From NCBI RefSeq assembly GCF_003334385.1, contig NZ_QOWN01000188.1: DNA of 369 bases; one strand, written 5' to 3'. The notes beneath the pieces were generated by a model. It did no database searches, was not told the origin of the DNA, and saw only the letters and a program-made list of their open reading frames with translations. Positions 1-369 of the stretch are shown here, piece by piece. Source of the DNA: Escherichia coli (lineage in GTDB: Bacteria > Pseudomonadota > Gammaproteobacteria > Enterobacterales > Enterobacteriaceae). Within the stretch, counting starts at the first letter, position 1, and each line of letters opens with the position of its first letter. Made by a program: the position numbers and the translations under genes.

Positions 1-216
1 CAACGATTTGGCCGCCGCCTCAGCCTGTATGTGAACACGGCAGCGGAAGCCATCCGGGCGCTGTCGTTACAGGTGCCGGGCTTTCGCCGTCAGATGAACG
101 AAGGCTGGTACCAGATACGTATTGCCGGTGATGACACGGCACCGGAGGCGGTGTATGCCCGCCTTCACGAACCACTGGGTGAGGGAACGGTCATCCATAT
201 TGTGCCGCGACTGGCC
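1..216 (+). other. N-terminal ubiquitin-like (beta-grasp) portion of the gpI-like protein, N-terminally truncated by the window edge
   Basis: This stretch aligns with the N-terminal region of lambda gpI, which has been described as a ubiquitin-like fold. It shows an alternating hydrophobic and charged pattern typical of a small globular domain (LSLYVNTAAEAIRAL ... GWYQIRIAG ... GTVIHIVPR). The domain boundaries are approximate. Confidence 0.55.
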
Positions 217-369
217 GGTGCCGGAAAGGGCGGACTGCAGATTGTGCTGGGGGCGGCGGCCATCGTGGGCTCTTTCTTCACTGCCGGAGCCACGATGGCG
301 TTATGGGGTTCAGCCCTGGCAGCCGGTGGTTTTTCTGCCACCACGATGCTGTTTTCACTTGGAGCCAGC
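1..369 (+). CDS. I: Tail tip assembly protein I (lambda gpI family), internal fragment; both the start and the stop lie outside the window
   Basis: Frame 1 is open across all 123 codons, while frames 2 and 3 contain TGA stops (for example at 32-34, 95-97, 129-131, 180-182). Third codon positions are GC-rich, consistent with this frame. The translation shares blocks with lambda gpI as I recall it: QRFGRR, AEAIRAL, GWYQ(I/V)RIAG, VIHIVPR, QIVLGAAAI, GSFFTAGAT, LFSLGAS. By that recalled alignment the true start codon should sit roughly 60-70 nt upstream of position 1 and the stop a few hundred nt downstream. Confidence 0.9.
235..369 (+). other. Uncharged Gly/Ala-rich hydrophobic segment (predicted membrane-interacting or glycine-zipper-like region), continuing past the window end
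   Basis: Codons 79-123 (LQIVLGAAAIVGSFFTAGATMALWGSALAAGGFSATTMLFSLGAS) contain no charged residue (D, E, K, R, H) in 45 positions and are rich in Gly, Ala, Ser and Thr spaced among Ile, Leu, Val, Phe and Trp. This is long enough for one or two hydrophobic helices. The same character is present in the corresponding region of lambda gpI as recalled. Confidence 0.6.

Follow-up and report, generated by a model that had tools for sequence, protein, structure and literature searches.

Why should a phage protein regarded as a soluble tail-tip assembly factor contain 45 consecutive residues without a charged side chain? The question arises in a 369-nucleotide stretch of Escherichia coli DNA (the window), where an initial annotation read nucleotides 235–369 as a transmembrane hairpin or glycine-zipper segment whose role was not well established. 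The hairpin is real, conserved, functionally important and already known: its role has been described explicitly since 2020–2024, with membrane insertion itself still put forward as a hypothesis. These nucleotides very probably encode the first helix (H1) together with the turn and the N-terminal half of the second helix (H2) of the published H1/H2 hairpin of a lambda gpI-type 'insertion' or 'plug' protein, which has been proposed to enter the host outer membrane on triggering.

A lambda-type gene I in an E. coli prophage

Frame 1 of the plus strand is open across all 369 bases; the other two plus-strand frames are interrupted by stops and the minus strand holds short open reading frames (ORFs) only. 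Three E. coli chromosomes carry a lambdoid prophage that matches the window at 100% DNA identity; more than 130 phage records match it at 90–97%, and there the gene bears the name tail (tip) assembly protein I. At a prophage locus with a 100% match (L002), the full gene I spans 5932–6612 and encodes 226 amino acids, of which the window covers residues 24–146 (window residue 1 is residue 24; full-length numbering is used below unless stated). phmmer aligned the encoded protein with lambda gpI over residues 1–224 (E = 5.9e-96; 8IYK chain I; also 8IYL, 8K35 and 8XCG), and phrog_32 ('tail assembly protein') matched the gpI homologue at 4.8e-79, with further matches to other PHROG tail families. 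The alignment and the prophage match establish the gene as the gpI homologue it had been taken for. Gene order at the locus is G/T, tape measure (H), M, L, K, I, J, so that I sits between K (JAB and NlpC/P60 peptidase) and J (central fibre). The K coding sequence (L002 5291–6034) matched PF14464 (Prok-JAB) at 3.6e-15 and PF00877 (NlpC/P60) at 1.7e-12.

Several methods agreed on an N-terminal ubiquitin-like domain in the encoded protein. Pfam Lambda_tail_I (PF06805) spans residues 15–97 (E = 4e-15), AlphaFold2 (AF2) gave a very confident beta-grasp domain (pLDDT >90 over residues 14–92, and 93–98 at 11–90), and Foldseek returned MoaD, SAMP1, ThiS and ubiquitin (TMt ~0.7), as well as Urm1, for this domain. 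Pfam covered the N domain only, with hits of DUF4225 and DUF3693 over the hairpin too weak (E ≥ 1) to be treated as anything but noise, and NCBIfam had no model for the 226-aa protein. Towards the other end, residues 137–223 aligned with the resolved gpI chains of 9E7M, which start at lambda residue 134 (E = 9e-39), and the C-terminal plug and beta-strand region carried near-invariant F177, N182, P191, Y194, G195, G200 and S205 in the family alignment. Judged by homology, the prophage protein possesses this region, the part that docks into gpJ in lambda; trimeric residence in the mature tail tip is known from lambda. The features of the window are as follows.

1–222, plus strand: the larger part of the N-terminal ubiquitin-like domain (a MoaD/ThiS-like beta-grasp), residues 24–97 (Pfam, AF2, Foldseek)
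2–34, plus strand: 3′ end of gene K in frame 2 (...NDLAAASACM, TGA stop at 32–34), overlapping gene I
223–234, plus strand: junction G-K-G-G (98–101); the ubiquitin-like domain closes with the Gly-Gly at nt 229–234, where gpK (JAB) is predicted to cleave
235–321, plus strand: hydrophobic helix H1 (~102–130) with invariant G107 (AF2, hydropathy, alignment, published lambda H1; PMC11101478)
322–336, plus strand: inter-helix turn A-G-G-F-S (131–135) (AF2 break at 131–135; low column occupancy)
337–369, plus strand: first half of H2 (136–146 of ~136–156) with invariant G144 (AF2 helix 136–156; aligns with the resolved N-terminus of lambda gpI)

RefSeq/PGAP begins gene I at an internal GTG (window 31–33, L002 6031), which gives a 193-aa product without the first 33 residues and drops the first beta-grasp strand (AF2 strand 14–19). 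The true start is the ATG at L002 5932, from which 226 aa are encoded, in line with lambda gpI from residue 1 on, and the gene overlaps K by 103 nt. The '190-residue' lambda gpI of a 2020 review looks like the same start truncation (PMC7291167).

Elsewhere at this locus (L002 1–5280), the annotation marks the tape-measure gene (H) and L as frameshifted and the major tail gene as truncated; I is intact. The prophage is probably defective and partly decayed, and because H and L are frameshifted, this copy of gpI may be out of use. Between the I stop and the J start, outside the window, lies a spacer of ~340 bp (L002 6613–6952) with two strong inverted repeats, CCCGCAG...CTGCGGG and AACCCCGGTATC...GATACCGGGGTT, the second adjoining a T/A run. 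The spacer also holds a mechanical 112-codon GTG ORF, has no Rfam match and could be a moron or an insertion remnant. At a second locus (L001), a small coding sequence annotated as 'tail fiber protein' (L001 4241–4474) lies between I and J.

Extent and conservation of the uncharged segment

Nucleotides 235–369 encode LQIVLGAAAIVGSFFTAGATMALWGSALAAGGFSATTMLFSLGAS, 45 residues (79–123 in the window frame) with no D, E, K, R or H. Counting thus bore out the uncharged stretch, as it did the dominance of small residues with large hydrophobics between them: A11 G7 S5 T4 (60% small) and L6 F4 I2 V2 M2 W1 (38% large apolar), with one Q. The run is really longer. The last charged residue upstream is K76 of the window frame (nt 226–228), so the run starts at nt 229, at the Gly-Gly; at the other end it extends 12 residues beyond the window. 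In full it comprises the 59 residues 100–158 between K99 and K159 (56% G/A/S/T, 39% large apolar, almost no polar), with lysines at both flanks of the hairpin (K99 and K159/K161). When the 226-aa sequence was shuffled 100,000 times, only 38 shuffles contained an uncharged run of at least 59 residues; at the charged share of the rest of the protein (21%), the probability is ~1e-6 for 59 residues and ~2.5e-5 for 45.

Scanned in full with HMMER, a set of 1.84 billion cluster representatives returned 3,273 relatives at E ≤ 1e-3, and we aligned 63 near-full-length relatives that were 32–70% identical to the query. Charged residues made up 1.7% of columns 100–158 in these homologues, compared with 23.7% for the N domain and 16.8% for the C domain, and columns 104–119 held none at all. 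G107, G144 and G151 were invariant. Conservation was highest at both ends of the segment, GG-x-x-Q-I-v-L-G-a-a-L-I-a and G-a-S-m-x-L-G-G-V-a-Q-M-L, the latter being the strongest block (144–157) and lying mostly past the window end, as does the second half of H2. Among three blocks first singled out as most conserved, QIVLGAAAI, which holds the invariant G107, deserved that description; GSFFTAGAT was moderately conserved (G119, 82%), and LFSLGAS had G144 as its only invariant position. The centre of the segment (121–141) varied in sequence and length, yet was only 0.5% charged; columns 129–136 were occupied in just 19–37 of the 63 homologues (indel-prone), and the uncharged segment ranged from 41 to 69 aa across homologues.

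A set of 44 unique close DNA copies gave a pN/pS of 0.11 for residues 100–158, an estimate that reaches shallow divergence only, since none of the 80 viral-contig loci fell below 97% protein identity. Charge depletion, conservation and this low ratio together argue that the apolar, uncharged character is the property under selection, which agrees with the functional constraint initially suspected. Across the family, selection acts on charge exclusion more than on the exact sequence of the central part.

Four cluster representatives (P0010, P0119, P0059 and P0024) change within the hairpin region to the frame-2 translation of the window (for example ...YGVQPWQPVVFLPPRCCFH... and ...RADCRLCWGRRPSW...). 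They are frameshifted copies or gene calls, so that decayed genes represent the hairpin region in databases. A 382-aa relative (P0007) was considered as a K–I fusion and rejected, its N-terminal 208 residues being unrelated to K.

Predicted helices, published structures and the role of the hairpin

From the 63-sequence alignment, AF2 placed two helices, 98–130 and 136–156, after the ubiquitin-like domain (pLDDT 56–71, and ~56–68 over 98–130) and left the C-terminus of the monomer unstructured. Structure prediction on the full-length protein, proposed at the outset, therefore gave a helical pair. Its hydrophobicity sufficed for two transmembrane calls in published TMHMM analyses (PMC7291167, PMC11101478, PMC12874032). 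The Kyte–Doolittle 19-residue maximum was 1.81 for H1 (at 104–122, above 1.6) and 1.48 for H2, compared with 1.78 in lambda H2. Wimley–White octanol energies were mildly favourable (−1.6 to −3.8 kcal/mol per 19-mer), and translocon-type (Hessa) sums were marginal for spanning (+1.5 to +3.4 kcal/mol). On these figures the segment is moderately, not strongly, hydrophobic, and the transmembrane half of the first reading holds in part: two calls can be made, but the translocon sums are marginal and the H2 maximum is low.

The glycine-zipper half fell away. Read directly, the segment contains no GxxxG; its glycines stand at 107, 113, 119, 126, 132/133, 144 and 150/151, spaced 6–7 apart, and its 11 small-xxx-small pairs match the ~10.5 that a hand calculation gives from composition. 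Small residues showed no periodicity peak near 90–100 degrees, and neither small nor apolar columns gave a clean amphipathic signal. We therefore rejected a strict glycine zipper.

The view of gpI as absent from virions is likewise outdated. Three copies lie within the mature tail tip, as mass spectrometry and cryo-EM have shown (PMC10721106, PMC11101478, PMC12617516; PDB 8IYK, 8K35, 8XCG, 9E7M). Goulet et al. 2020 reported two transmembrane helices called by TMHMM in gpI (PMC7291167). Xiao et al. 2023 found gpI in virions by mass spectrometry, modelled a gpI trimer (135–223) as a tripod beneath the C-terminal coiled coil of gpH, and pointed to lambda 137–152 as highly hydrophobic and a possible membrane-interacting element (PMC10721106). 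Ge and Wang 2024 described two helices, H1 and H2, with a plug (159–175), and likewise reported a TMHMM call for lambda gpI; according to that study, gpI of the closed tail is resolved from residue 101 onward (PMC11101478). In the LamB-bound open state, gpI is resolved only from 167, residues 101–166, including H1/H2, being lost, and the residues that follow the hairpin are directed toward the outer membrane; the authors propose that H1/H2 insert there (PMC11101478). H1 (lambda 101 to ~133) is resolved in only one of the closed-state studies, the other virion maps beginning at 134–135 (PMC11101478, PMC10721106, PMC12617516). The Ur-lambda study repeats the membrane view, with 'Strongly predicted transmembrane domains' in gpI (PMC12617516), and two transmembrane helices were called by TMHMM in the gpI homologue of an F7 pyocin (PMC12874032).

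These data fit a model in which gpI consists of a ubiquitin-like domain ending in Gly-Gly, an uncharged hairpin of ~59 residues, and a C-terminal plug with beta-strands that lock into gpJ. In the closed tip, three gpI copies sit in the lumen, their helices surrounding or supporting the C-terminal coiled coil of the tape measure, while the tube is sealed by the plug; once LamB has bound, the plug opens and H1/H2 can no longer be seen. Upon triggering, the freed hairpin would partition into the host outer membrane at the mouth of the tube, before the tape measure and DNA exit. Moderate hydrophobicity and a lack of charge suit storage in a protein lumen followed by entry into a lipid bilayer. Outer-membrane insertion is hypothesized from vanished density and from predictors, and the modest AF2 helix confidence, the marginal translocon sums and the H2 Kyte–Doolittle value of only 1.48 count against this account. 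To our knowledge, an alpha-helical hairpin in the outer membrane is unusual, which also speaks against insertion.

A less likely but serious alternative is that the hairpin is a packing element only, which clamps the tape-measure C-terminal coiled coil, holds the plug, and is expelled or disordered after triggering without ever spanning a membrane. Closed-state gpI helices do touch or encircle the tape-measure C-terminus, conserved glycines and small residues recur 6–7 apart as in tight helix–helix contacts, and translocon-scale energies are marginal. However, charge exclusion persists in the variable centre, where partner packing does not obviously need it; several groups have made TMHMM transmembrane calls, and in the open state the residues after the hairpin are directed at the outer membrane. 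The roles first suggested for the segment thus match the literature unevenly: packing against the tape measure has been shown by structure, and membrane association at ejection is the current, inferred model.

It seems very improbable that, while the tip is being assembled, the hairpin tethers gpI to the producing cell's inner membrane and leaves the ubiquitin-like domain on the cytoplasmic side, which would make its role one in assembly and not in infection. Two hydrophobic stretches with lysines on both sides would suit an in–in hairpin topology, and gpI is classically seen as an assembly factor; but the mature tip keeps the segment in the lumen, its hydrophobicity is marginal for translocon insertion, and the literature searched contained no membrane-bound tail-tip intermediates. 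Slightly less credible still is the 2006 description of the region as a linker, glycine-rich, of low complexity and flexible, that joins the ubiquitin-like domain to a C-terminal globular one. The high G/A/S/T content of residues 100–158, the length-variable centre and the lack of a Pfam model over the segment are in keeping with a linker. The large apolar share and near absence of polar residues are unlike flexible linkers, however, and three invariant glycines, well-conserved flanking blocks and the low pN/pS tell against one; the AF2 helices and the H1/H2 resolved by cryo-EM already contradict it. That the composition is a by-product of the opposite strand or of a nucleotide-level signal, such as an antisense ORF or RNA element, can practically be dismissed: a 59-codon antisense ORF is present (165–344, minus strand, ending at the TCA codon of S119 in window numbering), but the sense frame is homologous over its full length to a structurally solved protein with thousands of relatives, and Rfam had no match in L002 5900–7000. 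Long antisense ORFs are expected by chance because stops in that register need the rare sense codons TTA, CTA and TCA. By coordinate arithmetic, the antisense ORF and the sense frame share their third codon positions, which leaves variation at these positions unable to exclude the antisense ORF; its dismissal as an expected register artefact rests on sense-frame homology.

The gpI hairpin bears on how siphophages open a path through the Gram-negative outer membrane: for lambda and F-type pyocins alike, it is at present the candidate element that would contact the membrane first. The window itself adds one more well-conserved member to the family and nothing beyond that; it is useful for correcting the old views of gpI as a non-virion assembly factor and of the segment as a 'linker', and for showing the family-wide selection on charge exclusion.

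The Gly-Gly junction and related tip proteins

Iyer et al. 2006 identified gpI's ubiquitin-like domain, predicted its removal by the JAB domain of K at a C-terminal glycine, and named the middle region of gpI a glycine-rich linker (PMC1779556). Cleavage of this domain by gpK is reported in a meeting summary (PMC12908700), and the mature F-pyocin is without the N-terminal part of its gpI homologue. In the 63 homologues, position 101 is Gly in 96% and position 96 in 97%. The upstream JAB peptidase gpK would accordingly be placed to remove the ubiquitin-like domain at the Gly-Gly, the presumed exact site, and if it cut there, the mature protein would begin essentially at the start of the hairpin.

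Mass spectrometry of virions recovered a single gpI peptide at 9.87% coverage (S2 Table, PMC10721106). This coverage fits only the C-terminal tryptic peptide 202–223 of lambda gpI (22 residues, VVSQEISTADEGDGGQVVVIGR), and the C-terminal position of the sole peptide is weakly consistent with removal of the N domain. Mass spectrometry would all but miss the 60-residue tryptic peptide that spans the hairpin, and this may be one reason why gpI used to be regarded as a non-virion protein.

More tentatively, the role of the ubiquitin-like domain may go beyond that of a steric checkpoint: it could keep the membrane-active hairpin directly after it soluble, as a chaperone that is built in and later cleaved off. 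The JAB domain of gpK would cut between Gly100 and Gly101 once the hairpin is housed around the tape-measure C-terminus, and the three freed hairpins might then form the first outer-membrane opening through which the tape measure and DNA exit. Each element has been proposed or reported separately, and both their linkage and the insertion are hypothetical. If true, a ubiquitin/deubiquitinase-like pair would serve as the delivery system for a stored membrane-insertion device.

Lambda gpI shares with the prophage protein the three-module layout, the K-I-J gene order, full-length homology and an uncharged run of 59 residues (lambda 99–157; 100–158 here), and QIVLGAAAI, GSFFTAGAT and LFSLGASM-LGGVAQMLAPK are near-identical in the two. 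Differences comprise ~30% of residues, chiefly in the ubiquitin-like domain; a two-residue gap (an insertion) in the phmmer alignment near the H1–H2 turn, at query S135-A136 / T137; and the prophage host of the query, which looks partly decayed (frameshifted H and L).

The tip plug protein PA0640 / THIP of the F-type pyocin of Pseudomonas aeruginosa belongs to the same family and is also a trimer that plugs the tip lumen. Its N-terminal helices encircle the tape-measure C-terminus, TMHMM calls two transmembrane helices in it, and its N-terminal domain is missing from mature particles. In contrast to gpI, it belongs to a bacteriocin and not to a phage, its uncharged segment is shorter (94–142), and identity between the two is low. 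PDB entries 9L9P and 25VF, which may be PA0640 / THIP, matched the query at E = 1e-20 and 6e-13 (phmmer).

In phage T5, a tripod of three pb3 plug domains closes the tube where the gpI tripod does, and an outer-membrane interaction upon opening has been proposed for it (PMC10721106). Unlike gpI, this plug is an insertion within one large hub protein and not the product of its own gene, and it has neither a ubiquitin-like domain nor a JAB partner.

Pore-forming colicins carry an uncharged, Ala/Gly-rich helix–turn–helix hairpin of ~40 residues that is buried in a soluble assembly and released into a membrane when triggered. They act on the inner membrane, and their hairpin is buried inside a globular ten-helix domain. 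The gpI hairpin resembles that of the colicins in working principle only, the two having no homology.

Modules resembling gpI also occur in other protein contexts. Positions 159–276 of the central tail fibre J profile (phrog_31) matched residues 84–210, placing an I-like module near the J N-terminus, and in the 399-position family phrog_28576 the I module is C-terminal (positions 193–393). These profile matches point to I–J and other fusions, such as were noted in Iyer et al. 2006.
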